Virus record (IMG/VR): IMGVR_UViG_2585427728_000006
Coordinates: 1-12,549 of that record
Strand: one strand, 5' to 3'
Source of the DNA: a virus
Lineage: Duplodnaviria > Heunggongvirae > Uroviricota > Caudoviricetes
Length of the DNA: 12,549 nt
The notes below the pieces were generated by a model, which was not told the origin of the DNA, searched no databases, and worked only from the letters and a program-made list of their open reading frames with translations. A program made the position numbers and the translations under genes. This document shows positions 1 through 12,549 of this stretch, piece by piece; position 1 is the stretch's first letter, and every line of letters starts with the position of its first letter.

Positions 1-1362
1 ATGTTTAAACCGGAACTCCTTTCCCCGGCGGGAACGCTGAAAAATATGCGTTACGCTTTCGCTTATGGCGCAGATGCTGTTTATGCGGGCCAGCCGCGTT
101 ACTCCCTGCGTGTGCGCAACAACGAATTCAACCACGAAAATCTTCAGCTCGGCATCAATGAAGCCCACGCGCTGGGGAAAAAGTTTTATGTCGTGGTCAA
201 CATTGCACCGCACAACGCCAAGCTGAAAACCTTTATCCGTGACCTGAAACCGGTGGTGGAAATGGGGCCGGATGCGCTGATTATGTCCGATCCAGGGCTG
301 ATTATGCTGGTGCGTGAGCACTTCCCTGAAATGCCGATCCACCTCTCGGTGCAGGCTAACGCCGTAAACTGGGCGACGGTGAAATTCTGGCAGCAAATGG
401 GCCTGACCCGCGTGATCCTCTCTCGCGAGCTGTCGCTGGAAGAGATTGAAGAGATCCGCAATCAGGTGCCGGATATGGAGATCGAGATCTTCGTTCACGG
501 CGCACTGTGCATGGCCTACTCCGGTCGCTGCCTGCTCTCTGGCTATATCAACAAGCGCGATCCGAACCAGGGTACCTGCACCAACGCCTGCCGCTGGGAG
601 TACAACGTCCAGGAAGGGAAAGAAGATGACGTTGGCAACATCGTACACAAGTACGAGCCGATTCCGGTGCAAAATGTTGAGCCGACGCTGGGTATCGGCG
701 CGCCAACCGACAAAGTGTTTATGATCGAAGAAGCCCAGCGTCCGGGCGAGTATATGACCGCGTTTGAAGATGAGCACGGCACTTACATCATGAACTCGAA
801 AGATCTGCGCGCCATCGCCCATGTAGAACGCCTGACCAAAATGGGCGTGCATTCGCTGAAAATCGAAGGCCGTACTAAATCTTTCTACTATTGCGCACGC
901 ACCGCACAGGTTTACCGTAAAGCTATCGATGACGCCGCTGCGGGCAAACCGTTCGATACCAGCCTGCTGGAAACTCTGGAAGGTCTGGCGCATCGTGGCT
1001 ATACCGAAGGTTTCCTGCGTCGTCATACTCACGACGATTATCAGAACTACGAATACGGTTATTCAGTTTCTGACCGCCAGCAGTTTGTTGGTGAGTTTAC
1101 CGGTGAGCGCAAGGGGGACCTCGCGGCGGTAGCGGTGAAAAATAAATTCTCCGTTGGCGACAGCCTTGAGCTGATGACGCCGCAAGGCAACATTAACTTT
1201 ACCCTTGAGCACATGGAAAACGCCAAAGGTGAAGCGATGCCGGTCGCACCAGGCGATGGTTATACTGTGTGGCTCCCGGTCCCGCAGGATCTTGAGCTCA
1301 ATTACGCTCTGCTGATGCGTAATTTCTCCGGGGAAACCACGCGTAACCCACACGGTAAGTGA
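1..1362 (+). CDS. yegQ: U32-family peptidase-like protein YegQ (tRNA hydroxylation protein TrhP)
   Basis: Full-length 453-aa ORF starting MFKPELLSPAGT, matching recalled E. coli YegQ; stop TGA at 1360-1362; followed by cyaR as in E. coli. Confidence 0.9.
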   Translation: MFKPELLSPAGTLKNMRYAFAYGADAVYAGQPRYSLRVRNNEFNHENLQLGINEAHALGKKFYVVVNIAPHNAKLKTFIRDLKPVVEMGPDALIMSDPGLIMLVREHFPEMPIHLSVQANAVNWATVKFWQQMGLTRVILSRELSLEEIEEIRNQVPDMEIEIFVHGALCMAYSGRCLLSGYINKRDPNQGTCTNACRWEYNVQEGKEDDVGNIVHKYEPIPVQNVEPTLGIGAPTDKVFMIEEAQRPGEYMTAFEDEHGTYIMNSKDLRAIAHVERLTKMGVHSLKIEGRTKSFYYCARTAQVYRKAIDDAAAGKPFDTSLLETLEGLAHRGYTEGFLRRHTHDDYQNYEYGYSVSDRQQFVGEFTGERKGDLAAVAVKNKFSVGDSLELMTPQGNINFTLEHMENAKGEAMPVAPGDGYTVWLPVPQDLELNYALLMRNFSGETTRNPHGK

Positions 1363-1392
1363 TTAATTTCGATTATTTTTCCCGGATGGAAA

Positions 1393-1446
1393 ATTCTTAG
1401 AAACCGATCACATACAGCTGCATTTATTAAGGTTATCATCCGTTTC
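1393..1446 (+). promoter_or_regulatory. cyaR promoter region with putative CRP site (TTAGA-N6-TCACA, 1396-1411) and -10-like TATCAT (1434-1439)
   Basis: Half-site TCACA is perfect, left half-site is degenerate; spacing to the inferred cyaR 5' end fits a CRP-activated promoter. cyaR is known to be CRP-dependent. Exact positions not verified. Confidence 0.45.
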
Positions 1447-1533
1447 GCTGAAAAACATAACCCATAAAATGCTAGCTGTACCAGGAACCACCTCCTTAGC
1501 CTGTGTAATCTCCCTTACACGGGCTTATTTTTT
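1447..1533 (+). ncRNA. cyaR: Hfq-dependent small RNA CyaR (RyeE)
   Basis: Sequence GCTGAAAAACATAACCCATAAAATGCTAGCTGTACCAGGAACCACCTCCTTAGCCTGTGTAATCTCCCTTACACGGGCTTATTTTTT matches recalled cyaR; lies between yegQ and ogr as in E. coli K-12; ends in a U-tract. Confidence 0.85.
1507..1533. repeat. P2-type att core, left copy (prophage/chromosome junction next to ogr)
   Basis: 27-bp AATCTCCCTTACACGGGCTTATTTTTT, identical to 12046-12072; its reverse complement AAAAAATAAGCCCGTGTAAGGGAGATT matches the recalled P2 att core; overlaps the cyaR 3' end. Confidence 0.85.
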
Positions 1534-1595
1534 ACGTACAACAAATTGAAATAAAAGGATTTATTTCTGGTCACGTCCACACATTGACCACATCG

Positions 1596-1630
1596 ACAAA
1601 AAAGCCCCTCGACTGAGGGGCTTTCTGTTT
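1596..1630 (-). terminator. Rho-independent terminator downstream of ogr (hairpin usable on both strands)
   Basis: Stem GCCCCTC (1604-1610) / GAGGGGC (1615-1621) with 4-nt loop, flanked by an A-run upstream and T-rich run downstream, so a T-tract follows the hairpin on either strand. Confidence 0.55.
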
Positions 1631-1634
1631 GTAA

Positions 1635-1853
1635 TTACATCCACATAATTTGCTGCCCTGACGGCAAGGGGTGCGGCCTCACGGCGTGGACTTCTCCCGG
1701 CTTCACGATGTATCGCTGTACCGACTCATAAGTGATGAACGTGGCGCTGCAATTCACGTTCTGACACTGGTGATAACGCTCTTTTGTCGTGTCAGTGATA
1801 TAGCGACTTGTACGCGCATGTGCGGCATGCTGGCATAAAGGACAATGAAACAT
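1635..1853 (-). CDS. ogr: P2-type late gene transcriptional activator Ogr (zinc-finger)
   Basis: 72-aa product from ATG at 1853: MFHCPLCQHAAHARTSRYITDTTKERYHQCQNVNCSATFITYESVQRYIV..., matching recalled P2 Ogr/OgrK with the C-x2-C...C-x4-C zinc motif. The 93-aa ORF-track version is an upstream extension. Confidence 0.9.
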   Translation of the reverse strand: MFHCPLCQHAAHARTSRYITDTTKERYHQCQNVNCSATFITYESVQRYIVKPGEVHAVRPHPLPSGQQIMWM

Positions 1854-1934
1854 CGCGAGCACCTCTTCCGGTTTTGTTGATGGTGCCATTTTAGTTAATT
1901 TACCCTTATAAAACAAACAGATAAAAACAAAATA

Positions 1935-2189
1935 TTACTCATCACCTTCTGTTTCGTACTCCACATCAGAAAGCCTGACCTCAAGCTCTAAGGACGTCGT
2001 GAAGCCGCTGTTATTCAGAAAATGTGTCACTTTAGTGATTGTCCAGTCCTGCTCGTCTATGACGCGCTTAAAGCCTGACACTTTAACCGGTGTTTCCGTG
2101 TAAATATCTGCCCGACCAGTAGCCAGGCTGATGGAGAACTCCGCTACACCCCGTTGCAGCTTATCCCACTTCGCCTGAGCGGCACGCAT
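1935..2189 (-). pseudogene. C-terminal fragment of P2 gpD-like tail protein (yegZ-like remnant)
   Basis: 84-aa ORF ending ...TTSLELEVRLSDVEYETEGDE resembles the C-terminus of P2 gpD (about 387 aa in P2). Same frame stays open upstream to about 2312 with no plausible start, so the N-terminal roughly 70 percent of D is missing. Confidence 0.75.
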
Positions 2190-3135
2190 GGCCTGTGCTT
2201 TCGTGGCATATACCGTGGTCAGGGCAAAAACGTTATCAGCCTCACCGGCCAGATGGTATGAGCCACCGGTCAGCTTTACCGGTCTGGCAAAAAGCCTGCG
2301 TGCTGCCGTGCATCACAGCTCACCGATTTACGTCAAACGTAATATTCTGGCCTCGACATTTATCCCGCATCCGTGGCTTTCCCAGCAGGATTTCAGCCGC
2401 TTTGCGCTGGATTTTCTGGTGTTCGGTAATGCGTTTCTGGAAAAGCGTTACAGCACCACCGGTAAGGTCATCAGACTGGAACCCTCACCGGCAAAATATC
2501 CCCGCCGTGGCGTGGAGGAGAATGTTTACTGGTGGGTGCCGTCCTTCAACGAGCCGACACCTTTCGCGCCCGGCTCCGTGTTTCATCTGCTGGAGCCGGA
2601 TATTAATCAGGAGCTGTACGGCATGCCGGAATATCTCAGCGCCCTTAACTCTGCCTGGCTGAATGAGTCAGCCACGCTGTTCCGCCGCAAGTATTACGAA
2701 AACGGCGCACATGCCGGATACATCATGTACGTCACTGATGCCGTGCAGGATCGCAACGATATCGAAATGCTTCGCGAAAACATGGTCAAGTCGAAAGGCC
2801 GCAACAACTTTAAAAATCTGTTTCTCTATGCCCCGCAGGGAAAAGCCGACGGCATTAAAATTATCCCGCTCAGTGAAGTGGCAACGAAGGACGATTTTTT
2901 TAATATCAAAAAAGCCAGCGCCGCTGACCTGCTGGACGCGCACCGCATCCCCTTTCAGTTGATGGGCGGCAAGCCGGAGAACGTCGGGTCGCTGGGTGAT
3001 ATTGAGAAAGTGGCAAAGGTCTTTGTCCGCAATGAGCTTATCCCGTTACAGGACAGGATCCGCGAGATAAACGGCTGGCTCGGTCAGGAGGTCATCCGCT
3101 TTAAAAACTACTCACTGGACACTGACAACGGCTGA
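2188..3135 (+). pseudogene. N-terminally truncated P2-like portal protein gpQ
   Basis: ORF product resembles P2-family portal protein and ends next to cos, as Q does in P2. Frame opens only at 2179 and the first ~40 codons overlap the D fragment on the opposite strand, so the genuine Q part probably begins near 2314 and lacks its N-terminus (P2 Q is about 344 aa). No P gene or late promoter upstream. Confidence 0.75.
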
Positions 3136-3140
3136 ACATC

Positions 3141-3162
3141 GCCGCCTGCGGGCGGCTTTTTT
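3141..3162 (+). terminator. Rho-independent terminator after Q remnant
   Basis: GC hairpin GCCGCC-TGCG-GGCGGC (3141-3156) followed by TTTTTT (3157-3162), 5 nt after the Q stop codon. Confidence 0.6.
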
Positions 3163-3304
3163 ACACCCAGTCATCACGCCCTCACACGCTCACCACCGCA
3201 CAAAACAGCCCGCAGACACAGCAACGCCCCGGCGCAAAATCTAAACGCCGCCACGACGCGCTCAGACGCTGAAAAAATAAAATCAGCACCCCCGCCAGCG
3301 CGCA

Positions 3305-3323
3305 GTGCTTTCCCCGCCTCGCC
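3305..3323 (-). other. P2-type cos site (19-nt cohesive-end sequence)
   Basis: GTGCTTTCCCCGCCTCGCC is the reverse complement of GGCGAGGCGGGGAAAGCAC, the recalled P2 cohesive end; adjacent sequence toward Q also resembles the P2 left end. Confidence 0.75.
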
Positions 3324-3653
3324 CGCCCGCTTCATGGGGCGGTTTTGATGCAATACATGAGCATCGTAATGCCATATCGTGACAGGATTATAGAACATGA
3401 AGGTATACTAACTTACACATGCAAAAAAACGCACACTCAGGCATTCTCTTTGGAATACAATATGGTAAAAATATGATCATTTGAAGCTGCATATCCGTGC
3501 AGATTGAAATCAATGATGCTGCCCCTTCGTTAAGACAGCCAGGCCGCAATCTCTTGAGCTCAAGTGGACATCTAAGACAGAAAAACAATTTAAAGGCAAA
3601 GTTTTCGTAATGGTATCTTTGTCACAGCACACGCTAAAAAGGAACTAAACCTC

Positions 3654-4718
3654 ATGAGCACTCAGCAAGTCCTCAACATCCCTACAGCCGTATCGCAAGC
3701 GACCATCGAAAAATGGTTGAAAGGACTGGAACAGACAACGGAATTAGCCTTTTTTCGCCGTGTTGGCGGGCGGCATGGCTTCAATGTTACGAGCCGCTGG
3801 GCAAGTACATTGGATAACTTGAATAAAACTCTGAATGACCCATCGAAGCAAGGTACGCCTGCAAACTTTTCAAATCTCCGTTTGATTACGTTAAAAATAA
3901 TCACTAGCGTAAACCATTATTATTCAATTGATGGTATTAAATCAGGAACCATTAATTTAATACCAAATATAATCAACTACCCTCACCTCGATAAAACATT
4001 TAGCTCAGTATTTCCAATAAAACTTGATGATAATACAGGACTTCCTTCGACTCCTGGGCATTTCATTACTTCCATCGAAAAAATGGGGGATGGTATTGCT
4101 GTAATATATTCCTATATTATTTTAAGAAAAATCCAAGGAAGGAGTAAGCTACGTAGCAATCAATATCCAGAGCAGTACTTCAACACTGTTTTCATCCCTA
4201 ATGATTTAAGCCGTATAGAATATCGGGTTGATAAATCACTAGGTAAAAGAGCGTCTGAAAAAGCGATGGCAGATTTGCGCGCAAAATTTAATGAATTACT
4301 CGTGGAACTTAATATTAAGTTAGCTGTTGAAACTATAAATTTCTACAAAGCAATTTCCAATATTTACCTTGACAAACAATATGGAAGACTTGTTCAGGTT
4401 AATTTCCTTGATCCAAATGGAGATGAGGATGCTGTTCTTCGTTGCAGAACAGACCCCAATTATGATGCCCGTTATCGCGAGGTTGTATCTAAAACTCAGA
4501 ACGGAACACCTCGCTCATTGACCCTTGAAGTTTCTGGCGTTGCAGTGCGATTAGATAGTAAAGTTGCAAACGAAACAATTTCAAATGAAATTGGTTTTGA
4601 ACCCAGCAAAACTGATTGGTCTACAAACAAATTTTGTGGGGATTTTTATTTTACACAAACAGCAGATCATCAGGTGCATTATGGGGTGATAAATGATTTA
4701 CTCACAAGAGCGAAATAA
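3654..4718 (+). CDS. Hypothetical protein, cargo gene 1 of cos-proximal three-gene operon (354 aa, no recognisable family)
   Basis: ATG at 3654 with AAGGA about 10 nt upstream; long ORF in a strongly AT-rich block; first gene of a co-directional tightly packed trio. No Walker A, RT, TIR or Old-like motifs seen. Confidence 0.75.
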   Translation: MSTQQVLNIPTAVSQATIEKWLKGLEQTTELAFFRRVGGRHGFNVTSRWASTLDNLNKTLNDPSKQGTPANFSNLRLITLKIITSVNHYYSIDGIKSGTINLIPNIINYPHLDKTFSSVFPIKLDDNTGLPSTPGHFITSIEKMGDGIAVIYSYIILRKIQGRSKLRSNQYPEQYFNTVFIPNDLSRIEYRVDKSLGKRASEKAMADLRAKFNELLVELNIKLAVETINFYKAISNIYLDKQYGRLVQVNFLDPNGDEDAVLRCRTDPNYDARYREVVSKTQNGTPRSLTLEVSGVAVRLDSKVANETISNEIGFEPSKTDWSTNKFCGDFYFTQTADHQVHYGVINDLLTRAK

Positions 4719-5127
4719 AAAAATGCGCTCATTAGTGTATAAACAAAGAGTACTCCTGGAGAATGCCGGAAGCTCTTCTGTTTTCATAAATAATGATTCT
4801 CACATATATTATACAAATTTACTAGAATATGTAGAGGGTGATCTTGATCGTAATATTTATACAATCCCAGTATTACGAAAAGCCATAAAAACTGACAATT
4901 ATGAACATTTGCTACGAGTTGTTCAATTTTTTAGTAGCAATACCTCTTGTTTATTTAACGTTAAATATTGCTACGAACTAGAAAACATGGAGTTTGAGGA
5001 CATACAAGCTGATGAATATACCAACTATATATTAAACGGAGTTGAACCTGTAACTGCCAATGGTTCTGAAATTGAAGACTTCAATCCAAAATATCTTTCA
5101 TTTTATTGCATAATAAACCTGGATTGA
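4693..5127 (+). CDS. Hypothetical small acidic protein, cargo gene 2 (144 aa; alternative start at 4723 gives 134 aa)
   Basis: ATG at 4693 preceded by GGGGTG; overlaps gene 1 by 26 nt; stop TGA 5125-5127 lies 5 nt before the gene 3 ATG. Asp/Glu-rich, no recognisable motif. Confidence 0.6.
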   Translation: MIYSQERNKKMRSLVYKQRVLLENAGSSSVFINNDSHIYYTNLLEYVEGDLDRNIYTIPVLRKAIKTDNYEHLLRVVQFFSSNTSCLFNVKYCYELENMEFEDIQADEYTNYILNGVEPVTANGSEIEDFNPKYLSFYCIINLD

Positions 5128-5132
5128 CTGTC

Positions 5133-5981
5133 ATGAACAAACAACAAATCACATGTGAGTTAGGCAAAAGGGTTCATTTTGAAGATGAAGCGAGTTTTAT
5201 TGAAACATTATACTCGGATATAGAAGTCATAATAAAACTAATGGAGCAATCTAGTGACAAGTATTATTGTGATGATGAAGATAAACTAAGCCATACAATT
5301 GTAGCCTCTCTTGTACACCTAGGTTACGATGCAACCGAACAAACAAAAAAAAATGGAAGTGTGGACATAACCGTTCGTCCGAAAAATGGAGGATATACAT
5401 GGATTGCTGAAGCAAAAATCGGATACGGGAACCAAAAAATATTCGAGGGGCTACTTCAGTTGCTTACTCGCTATGTTAAAAGAGATAATCATGCAGGCAT
5501 GGTTATCTATTATCAAAAATCAAAGTCATCTTATCATTTCAAACAATGGCTGAAATACATATACAACCATGAGTGGAAGGATTATTGTACAAAGAAAGGG
5601 TCATTAAAAAAAGCGACTCCGCTACTTTCTCATTTAAAAAGTACGGTTTGTCCGAAAGTCAAACAAGGCTGTTGTTATGCTGACATTGATGTCATCCAAC
5701 CTTCGACTGATGGTCTAAAACTTCGCTGCTTCTATATTGACGTGCATCATGACCCAATTGACAGTAGTGGTTTAAAGAATAAGTCAATCGCCTTTGGTCA
5801 AGCCCAAAATAGAATTAGAGATTTATATCACTTATGGAAGACAGGACAGTTCGACGGCAGTATGATAGATGAATTATTTGAAGAAATAAAAATATATCAT
5901 AGCAATGAACTTGACGAAGAATATGAAGATGAAGATGAAGATGAAGATGAAGATGAAGATTCGAATATAAACTCAAAATGA
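5133..5981 (+). CDS. Hypothetical protein with PD-(D/E)xK nuclease-like signature and poly-(Glu-Asp) C-terminal tail, cargo gene 3
   Basis: ATG at 5133 (the ORF-track start at 5106 is TTG). Contains GSVDITV...(14 aa)...WIAEAKIG, i.e. D78 and E93-x-K95, a spacing typical of PD-(D/E)xK cores; C-terminus EYEDEDEDEDEDEDSNINSK. Confidence 0.7.
   Translation: MNKQQITCELGKRVHFEDEASFIETLYSDIEVIIKLMEQSSDKYYCDDEDKLSHTIVASLVHLGYDATEQTKKNGSVDITVRPKNGGYTWIAEAKIGYGNQKIFEGLLQLLTRYVKRDNHAGMVIYYQKSKSSYHFKQWLKYIYNHEWKDYCTKKGSLKKATPLLSHLKSTVCPKVKQGCCYADIDVIQPSTDGLKLRCFYIDVHHDPIDSSGLKNKSIAFGQAQNRIRDLYHLWKTGQFDGSMIDELFEEIKIYHSNELDEEYEDEDEDEDEDEDSNINSK
5925..5960 (+). repeat. Perfect hexanucleotide tandem repeat (GAAGAT)x6 inside gene 3
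   Basis: Six exact tandem copies of GAAGAT, in frame, encoding (Glu-Asp)6. Confidence 0.95.
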
Positions 5982-5994
5982 ACACCAAGAATCA

Positions 5995-6028
5995 CCCCAT
6001 TAAGTTTAGACATCCTAACTTGATGGGG
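5995..6028. terminator. Putative hairpin between convergent cargo gene 3 and A
   Basis: CCCCATTAAG (5995-6004) pairs with CTTGATGGGG (6019-6028) with one G-U position and a 14-nt loop; no strong T-tract on either strand, so function is uncertain. Confidence 0.3.
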
Positions 6029-6116
6029 AATTGACTTTTAAGTCTGTAACCCTAGCCATCAAAAATAGATTCATTTTAAATAAAAATATATCCGTTACGC
6101 CCCAAAAAAAATTGAA

Positions 6117-8387
6117 TTAATTAGGAAAAACACTCCCAGTTGGAATTTTTTTAAATTTATATTTCCTCCCATCGAAACATACTGTCGCACCGCGTGCTAA
6201 TACCTGTGGTTCCCATTGATTCGGCGTAATACCCTCCTGAGCCAACTCGAATCTTATACGTGGCGTCTGTTCCCGTTCAGCTTTTGTCATTCGTCCTGAG
6301 GGCGCTATCTGATAAGGTTTTAATGGCTCACAGCTCTTTTGCTGGCGATTTGGTCGTGGCGCATCGTGTTTTAGTGCGCATCTGAGCCCCGTCACGACTT
6401 CAGGGTCATCCCAGCCGATAACCCCGCGCTCAATCAGATTCAACACCGCTGCTGCTTGCTCAGAAGGTATGGATGTCATAGCAGGATCGCCACCGCTAGT
6501 TAGCTTTCCACAGTTATTGACAGGACTCCGAGGCGCGGCGATGCCGCTTTTTAAAGTCAAAGGCTCAACGACCGGCACTTTCGGAACAATGCGCCAGTCC
6601 GTCGTTCTGGTGATATGAATATGACGCGCGCCGAGATGCGGCGCGTAAATGCCGACCACTCTCTCGACTTCTTCCTCGTACTCGTTAACTTCATCCGACG
6701 GACTACGGGCAACCCTGACAGTCTGACAATCGCGCGGAACATTTGCCCCACCCTGCGCGCTGATATACAACGCAAAATCACCACTGTCTGCGGCAGCGCG
6801 TGCAGCCTCGACGCGTTCGTCAAACTCATCAGCAATGCTGACGCCGCGAGGCAATTTGCGTAGTTCACGGTAAGCCCCCATTGTCGGCAGGCCAACCGTT
6901 TTAAATTGCGGAATGCGCCACGTTGACGCCCATGCGGTAACAGCCGCGGCAGTGTCTTTCAGCGGCCTGCCGGTATCGTTATCGAGCTGACCATCCAGTG
7001 CATAGCCATCGATGTTTTTTGAGATGTATTTCGCGATATATCCCGCAGCACCGCCCCGGTTAAGGTGTTTTGCCTGAAAACGGTTTCGCGCGGCTCCTCT
7101 TTCGTCACCATCCTCTTTGAGCGCATAGCGACGCATGATTTCGATAATCTGGTTACGCTGGCGTGGATTACAAAAAAGCATCATATGCCAGTGCGGCGTT
7201 CCGTCGTGGTGTGGCTCGACGACTCGCAAACCGTAGACCTGTAAATCATTATCCTTGAATGCCGTGCGCATCAGGCTCCAGATGCGGCAGAGATAACGCT
7301 GCGCATCCTTTGGATTAAATGCCTCATCATTCCAGCCGTGATTTAGCTGGACGGTTTTACTTTCGCCTTTTCCGACCTGACGTGTCGGGTGATACTTTGA
7401 CGGCGCGGTCAGCGTGATAAACATCCCCACATCACCCTCTGCGGCGGCGTAACGCTCAATACCGGCGATGGTGTTCATCAGCTCCATCCGGCGAATTTCT
7501 GGATTAGAAATACTGCCCATCACCTTACTGATAAGGTCGATGCGCTCGCCGGTTTCCCTGTTTTCAAGGTCACACGATTTAAGAAATTCCAGATTTGCCT
7601 GGCGGCGCGCACACACATCACGAATGGCATGTTTACTGGCATAAGGAGAACGGTCTTTATTCACCTCCCCGACAGCAATCAGTAACGCCTCATGCCAGCG
7701 CATACGCTGGCCTTTAAGCTGACTAATCCACCACTCATCGTTAAACAGACGGGCAATGGCAGAATATGCCTGCCTCGTGGTCATCTGTCCTTTACGGTAT
7801 TTTTTCCAGTAGAGAGGGGAAATATTGAAAGCACGTGCAGCGCCAGCAACATGACCATACAGATGCGCCTGCGCCTCATCTGTAAACAGCGATTCTTTCT
7901 CGCCATGTGCATCAACCCATGCATCGCAGAGTTCCTCATACATCATGAAAAGCTGCGATGAGATACGGGCGGCAAACTTTTTCAGCTCCTTGTCATTCAT
8001 CCCCGGCAGACGCGCATAATGGTCACGCTCTGCCAGAAACAGCAACGACGCGTCGGTGTTCATTTCATGGCGCTGATTCACGCGCTCAATACGCGGCCAT
8101 AAACGGCGCTGAAAAGTGGATGTGAGGAAATAAAATCCGTGCACCGGGCTTTTATTGCGCCGGATGTAGTCATAGCGTGAAGTAAACAGCGAGCGCAAAA
8201 AGTAAGGCAGGCGATTAATCGTGGATAAAACACCTTGCACCTGACGCATCTCGTCACGTGTAAGGGGTCTTTCGCGCCCGACGGCCTCGCGTGGCGCGTT
8301 CCATGCATAAGCACCGGTAAACGTCTCACCGGTGCCTGCGGCAAATGCTGACGGAGGGACAAAACGCCCGGAGGCTTTAACGGCCAT
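6117..8387 (-). CDS. A: P2-type replication initiation protein gpA (rolling-circle HUH endonuclease)
   Basis: 756 aa from ATG at 8387 (MAVKASGRFVPP...), closely matching recalled P2 gpA, including the HWHMMLF (HUH) and YIAKYISK motifs. The ORF-track start at 8429 is TTG. Confidence 0.9.
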   Translation of the reverse strand: MAVKASGRFVPPSAFAAGTGETFTGAYAWNAPREAVGRERPLTRDEMRQVQGVLSTINRLPYFLRSLFTSRYDYIRRNKSPVHGFYFLTSTFQRRLWPRIERVNQRHEMNTDASLLFLAERDHYARLPGMNDKELKKFAARISSQLFMMYEELCDAWVDAHGEKESLFTDEAQAHLYGHVAGAARAFNISPLYWKKYRKGQMTTRQAYSAIARLFNDEWWISQLKGQRMRWHEALLIAVGEVNKDRSPYASKHAIRDVCARRQANLEFLKSCDLENRETGERIDLISKVMGSISNPEIRRMELMNTIAGIERYAAAEGDVGMFITLTAPSKYHPTRQVGKGESKTVQLNHGWNDEAFNPKDAQRYLCRIWSLMRTAFKDNDLQVYGLRVVEPHHDGTPHWHMMLFCNPRQRNQIIEIMRRYALKEDGDERGAARNRFQAKHLNRGGAAGYIAKYISKNIDGYALDGQLDNDTGRPLKDTAAAVTAWASTWRIPQFKTVGLPTMGAYRELRKLPRGVSIADEFDERVEAARAAADSGDFALYISAQGGANVPRDCQTVRVARSPSDEVNEYEEEVERVVGIYAPHLGARHIHITRTTDWRIVPKVPVVEPLTLKSGIAAPRSPVNNCGKLTSGGDPAMTSIPSEQAAAVLNLIERGVIGWDDPEVVTGLRCALKHDAPRPNRQQKSCEPLKPYQIAPSGRMTKAEREQTPRIRFELAQEGITPNQWEPQVLARGATVCFDGRKYKFKKIPTGSVFPN

Positions 8388-8652
8388 ATGAGCCAAAAGC
8401 CTCTGAACAACGCTTGCTGAGTTGCTCAACCTGCGCGTTTAAATCAGCAAAAGACTTTGCGCTTCCGGTCAGAATATCGTGATGCATCAGGCCGGAAACA
8501 AGCTGGCTTAATTTCGGATAATAACCAACCACCGCCAGCCATTCCTGACCGGCGTTTTTACCGCTTTCCGCTCTCTTTTTCTCGTGGAGAATAAACTGAA
8601 AGCTGTCACTGGTAACGACATAACGTTCGCCAATTTCAATACGAATACTCAT
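8377..8652 (-). CDS. P2 early-operon hypothetical protein (position of P2 orf83)
   Basis: 91-aa ORF; its ATG (8650-8652) overlaps the stop of the upstream gene, and its own stop overlaps the start of A; position between B and A as in P2. Confidence 0.7.
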   Translation of the reverse strand: MSIRIEIGERYVVTSDSFQFILHEKKRAESGKNAGQEWLAVVGYYPKLSQLVSGLMHHDILTGSAKSFADLNAQVEQLSKRCSEAFGSYGR

Positions 8653-8873
8653 GCCGTTCTCCGGTAATGTTTGTTTTTTGCTTCAAAGACTGACTGGCAG
8701 GAAACACAACGCGTGGCTGACGGATAAGCCGCACGACGGGCAGCAGGTATTGGCGCGTCACACTCTTCGCAAACCAGCGCAGAAGCACCGCAATGTTTTA
8801 CCCTTGCCGCGTTAATCTGACGCTCCAGTAATTCAGCCTGTTGTTCCTGAATAAAATCTACGTTGTCCGGCAT
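8649..8873 (-). CDS. TraR/DksA-family C4 zinc-finger protein (position of P2 orf82)
   Basis: 74-aa ORF with C-x2-C-x17-C-x2-C (CEECDAPIPAARRAAYPSATRCVSCQ); start overlaps the upstream stop (TAATG). Confidence 0.75.
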   Translation of the reverse strand: MPDNVDFIQEQQAELLERQINAARVKHCGASALVCEECDAPIPAARRAAYPSATRCVSCQSVFEAKNKHYRRTA

Positions 8874-9175
8874 TACCAGCTCCTTTTGTCGTTAAGTTTT
8901 TTAAATTCATCAGCGCAATAGCTGGCAATTTCTGTCGTTAATTTCGTCAGTTCATCCACGGAGGAGATTTGCTTGTGAAATACAGCGCGTTTAACAAGTA
9001 AATTGACCACATCAGACAGGAGATTTAATTCGTTCTGATAAATCGCGATAACAGACTCAGTTATTTCGCGTTTTTCTTTATCAAGACCAAGTTGAATAAG
9101 AGATAAATCGCCATTTTTCATAACGGTGATTTTTAAGGCGTTATTCAGTAATACAACTGAACGAGAACAGGACAT
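8873..9175 (-). CDS. P2 early-operon hypothetical protein (position of P2 orf81)
   Basis: 100 aa from ATG at 9175, which overlaps the stop of the upstream gene (TGATG); the 9178 start in the ORF track is TTG. Confidence 0.65.
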   Translation of the reverse strand: MSCSRSVVLLNNALKITVMKNGDLSLIQLGLDKEKREITESVIAIYQNELNLLSDVVNLLVKRAVFHKQISSVDELTKLTTEIASYCADEFKKLNDKRSW

Positions 9176-9399
9176 CAAAGCACCTCCCCGCGAGACAATC
9201 CGATATTGTGAAATTTTTCCGACTCCTGACTGAGCAGCTCGACTATCTCCACGCGGGATAACTCCGCCTTTGTGATGTGGCGAATCATGGCGTCAAGATG
9301 AGAAGAAAAGCGCGTCGCTGCGTCGGCCTGTGCTTCGGTTCTGGCCTGTTGCAGCAGTAATGCGTATTTACCGCACTGATTTTCAGAAACTGTATGCAT
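9175..9399 (-). CDS. P2 early-operon hypothetical protein (position of P2 orf80)
   Basis: 74 aa from ATG at 9399 (MHTVSEN...) with GGAGAAAG upstream; the longer ORF-track version starts at a TTG. Confidence 0.65.
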
Positions 9400-9462
9400 G
9401 ACTTTCTCCAGGCAAAAAGAAGCCCCGCACAATTAAGTGCGTTAAAAACTCTGGTTAATTAC

Positions 9463-9963
9463 TTAATGCAGATATTGCTCTGGTTTTACCGACGTCAGAA
9501 TTGTCGGTGCATACTCAAACAGGCTGAATAATTCACGTAATGCACGGAATAAAGCATCACGCCAGTAACATGATTCTTCATTAATTCGCCAGTATGGCTG
9601 GTTGAATTCTTTTTCAGTCAATCCGGCATGCATAAATAAAGTACGACGCTGACTGACTGTTAAAAAACTAATATATGCATACTCACTTGCGCCAACCTGA
9701 CGGCGTTTGGAGAATGCCCCACGCAATTCATCAATTGCACAAACCAGCCGTTCACGTTCGACGTCGTTCATTTCTTCAAAACGCATCGTTGCGTGACGCT
9801 GTTTTAACTGCGCATGGAAGCAAACCGTTAGCCGTTCGCGTTCCATCATCTGATTATAATAATCGCATGTCTCCTGCCAGCGAGGGACGGCCAGATGCTT
9901 ACCAATTATCCGGCGCATAGCTGCTGGCTGTTTTTCAACGAGATTGAGCGTCATCACTGTCAT
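9463..9963 (-). CDS. B: P2-type replication protein gpB (helicase-loader-like)
   Basis: 166 aa, MTVMTLNLVEKQPAAMRRIIGKHLAVPRWQ..., matching recalled P2 gpB over its whole length. Confidence 0.9.
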   Translation of the reverse strand: MTVMTLNLVEKQPAAMRRIIGKHLAVPRWQETCDYYNQMMERERLTVCFHAQLKQRHATMRFEEMNDVERERLVCAIDELRGAFSKRRQVGASEYAYISFLTVSQRRTLFMHAGLTEKEFNQPYWRINEESCYWRDALFRALRELFSLFEYAPTILTSVKPEQYLH

Positions 9964-10130
9964 TTCCAGACCCTCCGGCTTTTCAGAAAGGTCAGAGTCT
10001 TTTTTAACGGACTCTGTTTTTTGGTGCGGATAATGATTCCCTTACGCCCCTTACCGTGGGTGATGGTGAAGTCAATCGCCCTGGGGCTTTCGTTACGCAA
10101 TAACTGAGCAATACAACGAGGCTCATTCAT
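9960..10130 (-). CDS. Small hypothetical protein (position of P2 orf78)
   Basis: 56 aa from ATG at 10130 with a perfect AAGGAG upstream; the ORF-track start at 10154 is GTG. Confidence 0.6.
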   Translation of the reverse strand: MNEPRCIAQLLRNESPRAIDFTITHGKGRKGIIIRTKKQSPLKKTLTFLKSRRVWK

Positions 10131-10140
10131 ACGGTTCTCC

Positions 10141-10416
10141 TTAACGTGGTTCACCGAGACCTAACCACATCAACCAGCCGTCACGAATCTCTTTAGGACG
10201 GCTTTCATAAGCCAGTTTTAGTCCGTTATTCCATGCCGGAAGGTATACCCAATATTCACCAGCACGCCCCGATACTGACTGAGGGTCAGTAATCTCAATA
10301 ACTGGTAATTTCCCTTTCTCAATCATGCCCCTTACAGCTCTTGGAGTTTTACCAATGAGTTTTGCAAACTCCTGATAAGGCACGGCATCAGTCACGCTTA
10401 CAAGCTGTCTATTCAT
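10141..10416 (-). CDS. cox: P2-type Cox protein (excisionase / repressor of Pc)
   Basis: 91 aa, ...PYQEFAKLIGK...GRAGEYWVYLPAWNNGLKLAYESRPKEIRDGWLMWLGLGEPR, matching recalled P2 Cox; first gene of the leftward early operon. Confidence 0.9.
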   Translation of the reverse strand: MNRQLVSVTDAVPYQEFAKLIGKTPRAVRGMIEKGKLPVIEITDPQSVSGRAGEYWVYLPAWNNGLKLAYESRPKEIRDGWLMWLGLGEPR

Positions 10417-10537
10417 CTGCTACGATTCTCCCTTAGTGCTTCTAATGGCTCCTAATGGCTAATTATTGCCTAAAAGGATAACTCCAGAAGCACAACATTT
10501 CACACTATCAGCAAGAAATTACGCAATCGGAGTAATT
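10417..10537. promoter_or_regulatory. Divergent cox / C control region (Pe/Pc promoters and operator) with tandem 10-bp direct repeats
   Basis: Intergenic region between divergent cox and C; TCTAATGGCT / CCTAATGGCT tandem repeats at 10441-10460 are candidate C-repressor half-sites. Exact promoter elements not assigned. Confidence 0.6.
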
Positions 10538-10837
10538 ATGTCAATAGACGTTTCGGAGAAGTTGAAGCTAATCCGTGAATCTGAAAGGTTAAACCGTAAA
10601 GAATTCAGTGAATTAACTGGTGTAGCCTACAGCTCACTTTCGAGCTATGAGAGCCGGTCAAAAAACGCTGGAGTTGAAGCCATAATGAAGGTCTTACAAC
10701 ATCCCAGATTTACTAAATATACTTTGTGGTTCATGACTGATCAGGTAGCTCCAGAAGCCGGGCAAATTGCGCCCGCTCTCGCACACTTTGGGCAAAACGA
10801 AACAACGTCGCCCCACTCCGGTCAAAAGACTGGTTAA
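10538..10837 (+). CDS. C: P2-type immunity repressor C
   Basis: 99 aa from ATG at 10538; C-terminal half ...FTKYTLWFMTDQVAPEAGQIAPALAHFGQNETTSPHSGQKTG matches recalled P2 C; N-terminal DNA-binding part looks divergent from P2. Confidence 0.85.
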   Translation: MSIDVSEKLKLIRESERLNRKEFSELTGVAYSSLSSYESRSKNAGVEAIMKVLQHPRFTKYTLWFMTDQVAPEAGQIAPALAHFGQNETTSPHSGQKTG

Positions 10838-10952
10838 CAATTTATCGTGAATATATTCATCACAAGTGCCTACTATTGGTGGCTAAATTTCAGCCACCAC
10901 GAAAAAAGCGATTAGTAGTAGCAAAAAAAAGTACCACTCGGAGGGTTTTCTG

Positions 10953-11966
10953 ATGGCAATCAAAAAACTCGATGATGGTCGATATGAAGTGGACATCCGC
11001 CCTACTGGACGTAACGGAAAACGCATCCGTAGGAAGTTTGATAAGAAAAGCGAAGCTGTCGCTTTCGAAAAATACACGTTGTACAACCACCACAATAAAG
11101 AATGGCTATCAAAACCAACAGACAAACGACGTCTGTCGGAACTGACACAGATCTGGTGGGATTTAAAGGGTAAACACGAAGAGCATGGGAAATCTAATCT
11201 TGGAAAAATTGAAATCTTCACAAAAATAACGAATGACCCATGCGCATTTCAAATCACGAAATCCCTTATCAGCCAGTACTGCGCCACCCGAAGAAGTCAG
11301 GGTATTAAACCTTCGAGTATCAATCGTGATTTAACATGTATTAGCGGCATGTTTACAGCCCTGATTGAAGCGGAGTTATTCTTTGGTGAGCACCCTATCA
11401 GAGGGACAAAGAGGCTTAAGGAGGAAAAACCAGAAACAGGCTATCTCACACAGGAAGAAATTGCCTTACTGCTTGCAGCACTTGACGGCGACAACAAAAA
11501 GATTGCGATTCTTTGCCTGAGTACAGGAGCACGTTGGGGAGAAGCAGCTCGTTTAAAAGCAGAAAATATCATCCATAACCGCGTCACGTTTGTTAAAACG
11601 AAAACAAACAAACCACGCACCGTCCCGATCTCAGAGGCTGTTGCCAAAATGATCGCGGATAACAAACGAGGTTTTTTATTCCCTGATGCTGATTACCCTC
11701 GCTTCAGACGAACAATGAAAGCAATAAAACCGGATTTGCCAACGGGGCAAGCCACACATGCACTAAGGCACAGCTTTGCCACTCATTTCATGATTAATGG
11801 AGGAAGTATTATCACGCTACAACGGATACTAGGTCACACGCGGATTGAGCAAACTATGGTTTACGCTCATTTTGCGCCAGAGTACCTTCAGGACGCCATT
11901 TCTCTTAATCCGCTAAGAGGTGGTACTGAAGCCGAGAGTGTCCACACAGTGTCCACAGTAGAGTAA
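10953..11966 (+). CDS. int: P2-type integrase (tyrosine recombinase)
   Basis: 337 aa, GGAGGG SD upstream; C-terminal catalytic region HALRHSFATHF...LGHTRIEQTMVYAHF with the catalytic Tyr; downstream of C as in P2 and adjacent to the att core. Confidence 0.9.
   Translation: MAIKKLDDGRYEVDIRPTGRNGKRIRRKFDKKSEAVAFEKYTLYNHHNKEWLSKPTDKRRLSELTQIWWDLKGKHEEHGKSNLGKIEIFTKITNDPCAFQITKSLISQYCATRRSQGIKPSSINRDLTCISGMFTALIEAELFFGEHPIRGTKRLKEEKPETGYLTQEEIALLLAALDGDNKKIAILCLSTGARWGEAARLKAENIIHNRVTFVKTKTNKPRTVPISEAVAKMIADNKRGFLFPDADYPRFRRTMKAIKPDLPTGQATHALRHSFATHFMINGGSIITLQRILGHTRIEQTMVYAHFAPEYLQDAISLNPLRGGTEAESVHTVSTVE
11938..11957. repeat. Tandem direct repeats GTGTCCACA x2: putative Int arm-type binding sites
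   Basis: Two exact 9-bp copies 11 bp apart at the 3' end of int, about 90 bp from the att core; a related GTCCACACA occurs in the other arm at 1574-1583. Confidence 0.5.
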
Positions 11967-12045
11967 CGTTTAAGGGCTTTCAGTGGTAATTTATGCCGCT
12001 CAAACCCGCATTGTACCGTTGAAAGCCCCTACTGGTGACACCCTA

Positions 12046-12072
12046 AATCTCCCTTACACGGGCTTATTTTTT
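12046..12072. repeat. P2-type att core, right copy (prophage/chromosome junction next to int)
   Basis: 27-bp exact direct repeat of 1507-1533, followed by one extra T. Confidence 0.85.
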
Positions 12073-12136
12073 TATGCATAAGCCCTATCTCTGGTAACCG
12101 TCTTCCATTGACCACATCGATAGAATCCTCCTTCAT

Positions 12137-12169
12137 AGCACGATGCCTTTCACTTATCGGCATCGTGCT
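12137..12169. repeat. Perfect 11-bp inverted repeat (stem-loop) between att core and yegR
   Basis: AGCACGATGCC (12137-12147) and GGCATCGTGCT (12159-12169) with an 11-nt loop; no adjacent T-tract on either strand. Confidence 0.5.
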
Positions 12170-12231
12170 CCCACAGGTTCCGGCTACGCACAGCCAGAAC
12201 GCGCATATTTGACGCTTACCAAAAAATATTC

Positions 12232-12549
12232 TCACTCTCCACATTTGAATGTCAGACGAGCGACACCATGTAATCCTACACCTTCTGTCTTCAGCTCAAC
12301 TATTTGCATTTTTTTGCCCTGAGTAACACAGAAATGAGTTGCATCATTTTTTACTATATTTTCTGCACCAGATATTCTACCCCTGGCTAAAGAAGCTTCG
12401 GCTTCGGTGTAGTATTGGTTATCGAGTTTACGCTGAATATTACTTTTATATGCAAGACCAAATTTACCGATACTTGTCTCATCATTATGCACAGCACAAC
12501 CAGACATAATAAAAATACTAATTAATGATATAGCAGCTATCTTTTTCAT
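12232..12549 (-). CDS. yegR: Putative lipoprotein YegR
   Basis: Complete 105-aa ORF (start codon is the last 3 nt of the window) with signal peptide and lipobox (IFIMSGC); matches recalled E. coli YegR. Confidence 0.85.
   Translation of the reverse strand: MKKIAAISLISIFIMSGCAVHNDETSIGKFGLAYKSNIQRKLDNQYYTEAEASLARGRISGAENIVKNDATHFCVTQGKKMQIVELKTEGVGLHGVARLTFKCGE

Follow-up and report, generated by a model that had tools for sequence, protein, structure and literature searches.

The DNA analysed here is a stretch of 12,549 nucleotides (the window), in which the sRNA gene cyaR (RyeE) meets a P2-type element. The host genes around cyaR are arranged as in K-12, with yegQ/trhP on one side and yegR on the other. 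The features at and just past cyaR are listed below.

1–1362, plus strand: yegQ/trhP, host gene upstream of cyaR (open reading frame; 98.4% identity to K-12 trhP)
1363–1446, plus strand: cyaR promoter region, host (100% identity to the K-12 intergenic region)
1447–1533, plus strand: cyaR (RyeE) sRNA gene, 87 nt (RF00112 and K-12 b4438)
1498–1525, plus strand: cyaR intrinsic terminator hairpin, followed by the tail TATTTTTT (terminator scan and fold)
1507–1533, no strand: att core, 27 bp, of the ogr-proximal junction, attR in P2 terms (exact repeat; identical to the P2 attP core)
1532–1596, no strand: phage P arm of attR, with the IHF site at 1532–1565 and Int arm-type sites at 1569–1596 (P2 annotation carried over through a 96.6% alignment)
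1601–1624, no strand: rho-independent terminator hairpin of the P2 ogr/F operon (P2 annotation 24265–24288; fold)
1635–1853, minus strand: ogr, late gene activator, intact (72 of 72 aa identical to P2 Ogr; Pfam Ogr_Delta, 1.1e-21)

An Rfam scan of the window revealed a single cyaR match, CyaR/RyeE (RF00112) at 1445–1530 on the plus strand, which scores 100.7 bits against a gathering score of 47 and covers model positions 1–85 of 85. The cyaR gene of K-12 MG1655 (b4438), an annotated ncRNA of 87 nt, maps to 1447–1533 with no mismatch (87/87), and the 84 nt upstream of it are also 100% identical to K-12. Because the sequence is identical to that of K-12 cyaR, we infer that the window's strain would normally express and terminate CyaR as an Hfq-binding RNA of about 87 nt.

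The cyaR terminator folds into a hairpin of 11 pairs with a 6-nt loop (1509–1514), at a dG of −15.9 kcal/mol and a z score of −6.5. Its G+C-containing stem at 1498–1525 stands directly before the T-run of the tail, as in an intrinsic terminator. We notice that the stem co-varies over 120 enterobacterial species (ACACGGGC, ACGCAGGC, GAGCTGGC and others), in a comparison whose search pattern itself demanded the terminator loop and the adjoining bases AATCTCCCTT.

The att core at the 3' end of cyaR

The 27-mer AATCTCCCTTACACGGGCTTATTTTTT is present in two exact copies, at 1507–1533 and 12046–12072, with 0 mismatches between them. Because cyaR occupies 1447–1533 and the left copy 1507–1533, the att core coincides exactly with the final 27 nt of the annotated gene, in agreement with the initial annotation of this DNA. 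The initial annotation had also equated the core with the terminator hairpin and the U-tract. This holds for the loop, the entire 3' arm and the tail, but not for the 5' arm, of which only 2 of 11 nt belong to the core. The other 9 nt of the 5' arm (1498–1506) are host-only and lie outside the repeat.

The 27-mer is identical to the annotated attP core of P2 (AF063097, 24356–24382; 27/27). Blastn aligned window positions 1507–2251 to P2 24382–23638 with 96.6% identity, over the core, the IHF site, the P arm, the ogr terminator, ogr and the end of D. The arm sites of attR were transferred from AF063097 (IHF, 24324–24357; P arm, 24293–24320), with one substitution relative to P2. From 1534 on, the DNA is that of the phage, in the order IHF site, P arm, ogr terminator and ogr. 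The proposals that integration preserves the cyaR 3' end and that the context downstream is phage-derived are therefore both borne out by the alignments, with all 87 nt of cyaR regenerated at 0 mismatches to K-12. When the outer flanks of the two junctions are joined into a chimeric 128-mer, the result is the unoccupied host site known from other strains.

CyaR termination next to phage DNA

We then considered whether the phage-derived context measurably alters CyaR 3'-end formation, in which case CyaR dosage would depend on lysogeny. Such an effect could run through termination efficiency, through the length of the Hfq-binding tail, or through read-through antisense to ogr. Some read-through of CyaR is plausible, because its terminator is intrinsically leaky: read-through reached 41% when it was assayed in an hfq mutant on a double-terminator plasmid (Morita 2022, PMC9765468). 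Nothing shows that such read-through depends on the prophage. The phage IHF site (1532–1565) abuts the U-tract. An inverted repeat of the empty context, GGGCTTAT...ATAAGCCC, is lost at the cyaR junction, and the T-run is polymorphic (T6 or T7) among host flanks.

Comparison with unoccupied sites, six of which were inspected base by base, weighs against the effect. Five of the six read ...GGGCTTATTTTTT-A, as the lysogen junction does, so that the hairpin, the T6 U-tract and the A behind it are the same in both. The two contexts split only from the second base after the T-run, with ACGTACAAC at the lysogen junction and ATGCATAAGCCC in the empty sites. Moreover, a second strong hairpin with a T-rich tail, that at 1601–1624, lies 68 nt past the cyaR end and before ogr, and it scores as a terminator on the plus strand too. 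Read-through from cyaR should stop at this hairpin, and the resulting RNA would be about 180 nt long. Finally, K-12, from which the 87-nt definition of CyaR comes, already has the core–P arm–ogrK context. We therefore find an influence of the phage context on CyaR 3'-end formation unlikely, and the suggestion of the initial annotation that this context could affect termination or read-through into ogr-antisense sequence is weakened.

Shortening of the U-tract from T7 to T6 by integration was first considered because the right junction of the window and K-12 have T7. It was rejected, as five of six aligned unoccupied sites have T6 and then A. Among host flanks, we observed T7 in the right junction of the window (12066–12073), in K-12 and in strain Z1323, and T6 in the five other unoccupied sites. 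On these alignments, the length of the T-run is a host polymorphism and not a result of integration. The polymorphism would yield CyaR tails of differing length in empty-site strains. We also notice that the unoccupied-type flank at 12059–12085, GGGCTTAT(T6–7)ATGCATAAGCCC, forms an 8-bp inverted repeat. It shares GGGCTTAT with the 3' arm and tail of the cyaR terminator, and the prophage separates it from cyaR.

The right-hand junction and the rebuilt attP

The right end of the window holds the second junction and the host flank beyond it.

11932–12029, no strand: P' arm (two TGTCCACA repeats, at 11939 and 11950) and Cox-binding region of attL (P2 24399–24496)
12046–12072, no strand: att core, 27 bp, of the int-proximal junction (attL), an orphan copy of the cyaR 3' end without the hairpin (exact repeat; fold)
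12086–12125, no strand: host flank similar to the P2 P arm, perhaps a relic of an earlier P2-type attR (over 40 nt, 75% identical to 1562–1601)
12232–12549, minus strand: yegR, host (12055–12549 is 100% identical to K-12)

The P' arm and Cox-binding region of attL is identical to P2. Window positions 6161–12072 align to P2 30260–24356 with 93% identity (blastn), from A through int and the P' arm to the core. When the inner flanks of attR and attL are joined, they restore the P2 attP (24250–24499) but for one substitution in about 249 aligned bases. It includes the P arm, the IHF site, the Cox sites and the P' arm, and the arm repeats TGTCCACA and TGACCACA are present; the published consensus of the Int arm-type sites is tgTGGaCa (Nilsson 2011). 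The cognate tyrosine integrase adjoins one of the junctions, and the excisionase Cox is present.

With its 3' arm and a T7 run, 80 nt past the int stop codon, the right-hand core might be taken for an intrinsic terminator of int or for another, truncated cyaR. Because 9 nt of the 5' arm lie outside the repeat and phage sequence precedes the core, the right-hand copy is unfolded. The place of the 5' arm is taken by phage sequence, which is unpaired (dG −3.5, z +0.8), and the scan of this core called no terminator. As for a second cyaR, Rfam gives only the one match, and the promoter and the seed region are absent. With no hairpin, no terminator call and a single Rfam match, we rejected both roles, which are very improbable. 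The existence of a direct repeat is all that speaks for a chance repeat, or for the target-site duplication of a transposable element unrelated to P2 Int, and this reading is practically impossible given that the repeat had 0 matches in 200 dinucleotide shuffles, that it is the annotated attP core with flanks that rebuild attP and its arm sites, and that the element contains intact P2 int and cox.

We are nearly certain that a P2-type prophage occupies the P2 attachment site that overlaps the 3' end of cyaR and that the window spans its two junctions; no observation contradicts this reading. That this is the known P2-type site next to cyaR had been stated at the outset, and the identity of the core, the rebuilt attP, the K-12 annotation and the literature all agree with it.

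From the established P2 Int/IHF/Cox system, we infer how the junctions would have formed. P2 Int, a tyrosine recombinase, and IHF would have exchanged strands somewhere inside the 27-bp identity of attP and the host site, a segment that runs from the top of the cyaR terminator stem through the loop and the 3' arm to the U-tract. The phage brings these 27 bases with it, so that after integration the ogr-proximal junction would again hold all 87 nt of cyaR behind the host promoter, and the int-proximal junction would keep an orphaned, non-functional cyaR 3' end. Past cyaR, the order would then be phage IHF site, P arm, the ogr terminator, which looks bidirectional, and ogr on the opposite strand.

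The host flank beyond the right junction

The host flank at 12086–12125 reaches a local alignment score of 38 against the P2 P arm, whereas shuffled sequences score 13.9±2.1 and 0 of 2000 shuffles reach 38. Its likeness to the P2 P arm (window positions 1561–1596) includes the 15-mer CATTGACCACATCGA without a mismatch and one arm-type Int repeat, TGACCACA, that is still intact. This arm-like segment lies 15–16 nt nearer the core than the P2 arm does. The flank (12073–12125) is conserved in unoccupied E. coli sites (also in the loci L003–L008 and L068) and is absent from the locus of Escherichia sp. E1V33. Among phage records, we found no extant phage with a P arm matching it. The sole records that cover it, ON470606 and a 2.4-kb 'Phage TP', look like sequences including host flank.

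On the basis of this resemblance, even the "empty" cyaR site seems to be scarred by an older P2-type insertion, whose fossil attR would be common in E. coli. The cyaR site is said to have been described by Barreiro and Haggard-Ljungquist in 1992 as the preferred P2 site, under the name locI. One may speculate that the empty-site flank holds a fossil P arm and that either this relic helps to make cyaR a preferred P2 site, if Int still binds it, or Int or IHF bound just past the U-tract modulates CyaR 3'-end formation in lysogens; we consider this proposal quite unlikely.

A deletion derivative of P2

Between the two junctions, the following features were identified in addition to ogr.

1938–2255, minus strand: D', 3' remnant of the tail gene D, aa 282–387 (tblastn 97%; the blastn alignment to P2 stops at 23638)
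2242–3132, plus strand: 'Q, portal gene without its first ~47 codons (tblastn, Q aa 48–343; Pfam Phage_portal)
3305–3323, no strand: cos, joined cohesive ends (19-nt overlap of the alignments to P2 1–19 and 33575–33593)
3353–6160, plus strand: non-P2 cargo in the old/tin slot, with ORFs at 3654–4718, 4693–5127 and 5106–5981 (no P2 blastn match)
6117–10416, minus strand: P2 early operon with A, orf83, orf82, orf81, orf80, B, orf78 and cox (tblastn; PHROGs)
10538–10837, plus strand: C-type immunity repressor (64.6% identity to P2 C, tblastn)
10953–11966, plus strand: int, tyrosine integrase, intact (99.7% identity to P2 Int over 337 aa; Pfam Phage_integrase and Int_N)

Judged by its sequence, the element at 1507–12072 is a 10.5-kb deletion derivative of P2 ('mini-P2') and not a full prophage. 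Blastn and tblastn show that P2 1073–23637 (22.5 kb) is missing, that is the 5' part of Q, P through U, and most of D. At the deletion junction (2250/2251), D' (aa 282–387) abuts 'Q (aa 48–343). The element keeps both att sites, int, cox, C, B, A, orf78, orf80–83, the ori region, cos and ogr. With this content, the mini-P2 may still be able to excise and replicate, and a helper P2 might package it.

A search of 5426 complete E. coli genomes did not recover the D'/'Q junction in one piece, and the D'/'Q fusion ORF has no recorded counterpart. With its junction absent from those genomes, this form of the remnant is rare, which has no bearing on the relation of att to cyaR. A comparable ogr–D'–'P–Q remnant was observed at cyaR in a Citrobacter youngae locus (L097).

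In the early operon, identity to P2 is 91.8% for A, 98.8% for B, 83.5% for Cox (91 aa) and 95–100% for orf78–83 (tblastn). We notice that C and Cox diverge from P2 (64.6% and 83.5% identity), whereas Int, B and Ogr are about 99–100% identical. This suggests a different immunity type on an otherwise P2-identical backbone.

The three cargo ORFs encode 354, 144 and 291 aa and replace old/tin in a known accessory/defence hotspot of P2. None of them matches a Pfam or NCBIfam family, and none has a solid PADLOC assignment. ORF1 matches phrog_12777 weakly, and ORF3 matches phrog_9664 (2.6e-74) and, weakly, the PADLOC candidate PDC-S54 (1.6e-7). The segment 3353–6160 is thus a candidate for uncharacterised anti-phage cargo.

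Occurrence of the junction in E. coli and other genera

The cyaR–core–P arm junction was detected in 1222 of 5426 complete E. coli genomes. The unoccupied site, counted as the chimeric 128-mer at a coverage of at least 80%, was detected in 4208 of the 5426, so that the two classes are nearly complementary, and a few small remnants may fall in the unoccupied count. The phage context hence applies to about 22% of complete E. coli genomes and the unoccupied context to about 78%.

In a survey of 120 species-representative loci, a P2-type P arm (local score of at least 46) directly follows cyaR in eight, with Citrobacter, Buttiauxella, Enterobacter and E. albertii included. These eight loci carry several different 27-nt core variants, each matching the local terminator, and in three of them ogr, D and further tail genes come after the P arm. 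The arrangement cyaR–core–P arm–ogr–D... of the window recurs in two Citrobacter youngae loci and a Buttiauxella MAG, as well as in Enterobacter sp., in E. albertii (as a remnant) and in many IMG/VR contigs. Unlike the 27-mer common to E. coli and P2, the core in other Enterobacteriaceae follows the local variant of the cyaR terminator, for example ...TTACGCAGGCTTATTTTTT. The core variant ...TTACGCRGGCTKATTTTTT is carried by 46 IMG/VR viral contigs, beside ogr–D–U–T or beside int.

The exact 27-mer of E. coli and P2 was also seen in three Kluyvera loci and in an Enterobacter hormaechei record. In many IMG/VR prophage contigs, the core lies at exactly 1507–1533 and the contig starts at the yegQ start codon. 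This shared core position and start suggest that the window is a predicted-prophage record with host DNA at its left end.

Relation to known systems

The arrangement of cyaR and the P2 junction is already known, because it is documented by the K-12 annotation of PR-X and by two earlier studies. In K-12, the cryptic prophage PR-X (ogrK and yegZ, the latter equal to D') is annotated as overlapping the cyaR 3' end. "cyaR RNA" is listed as a P2-type insertion site in strains W, K-12 and B (Archer 2011, PMC3032704), and ryeE has been treated as an already known phage target, with reference to Wassarman 2001 (Bobay 2013, PMC3603311).

P2 and the K-12 PR-X (ogrK–yegZ) share with the window the 27-bp core, the orientation cyaR–core–P arm–ogr and the host genes yegQ/trhP and yegR. 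The two remnants differ in their deletions. The window has lost an internal segment (P2 1073–23637) and retains int, cox and the two att sites intact. In PR-X, by contrast, the deletion starts inside D and extends into the attL core; 629 bp remain, and of the second core only 18 bp. The window differs from P2 itself in its C, at 64.6% identity, and in the cargo of the old/tin slot.

Temperate elements that integrate in the 3' ends of tRNA, tmRNA and sRNA genes resemble the window in that the att core duplicates the 3' end of a structured-RNA gene, and the RNA gene survives the insertion because of this duplication. Examples are phage 186 at tRNA-Ile, Fels-2 and SopE-phi at ssrA, and Salmonella phages at ryeB/sdsR. 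Compared with other integrations in RNA genes, the duplicated part in the window is short (27 bp) and comprises only the 3' portion of a terminator hairpin, with no functional RNA domain.

The finding matters little beyond correct annotation. The junction fixes the exact ends of the P2-type element (1507–12072) and shows that cyaR is intact in this strain. For studies of CyaR termination and read-through, it means that the reference context of K-12 is itself phage-derived. The locus adds to the cases of structured RNA genes whose conserved 3' ends are phage targets.
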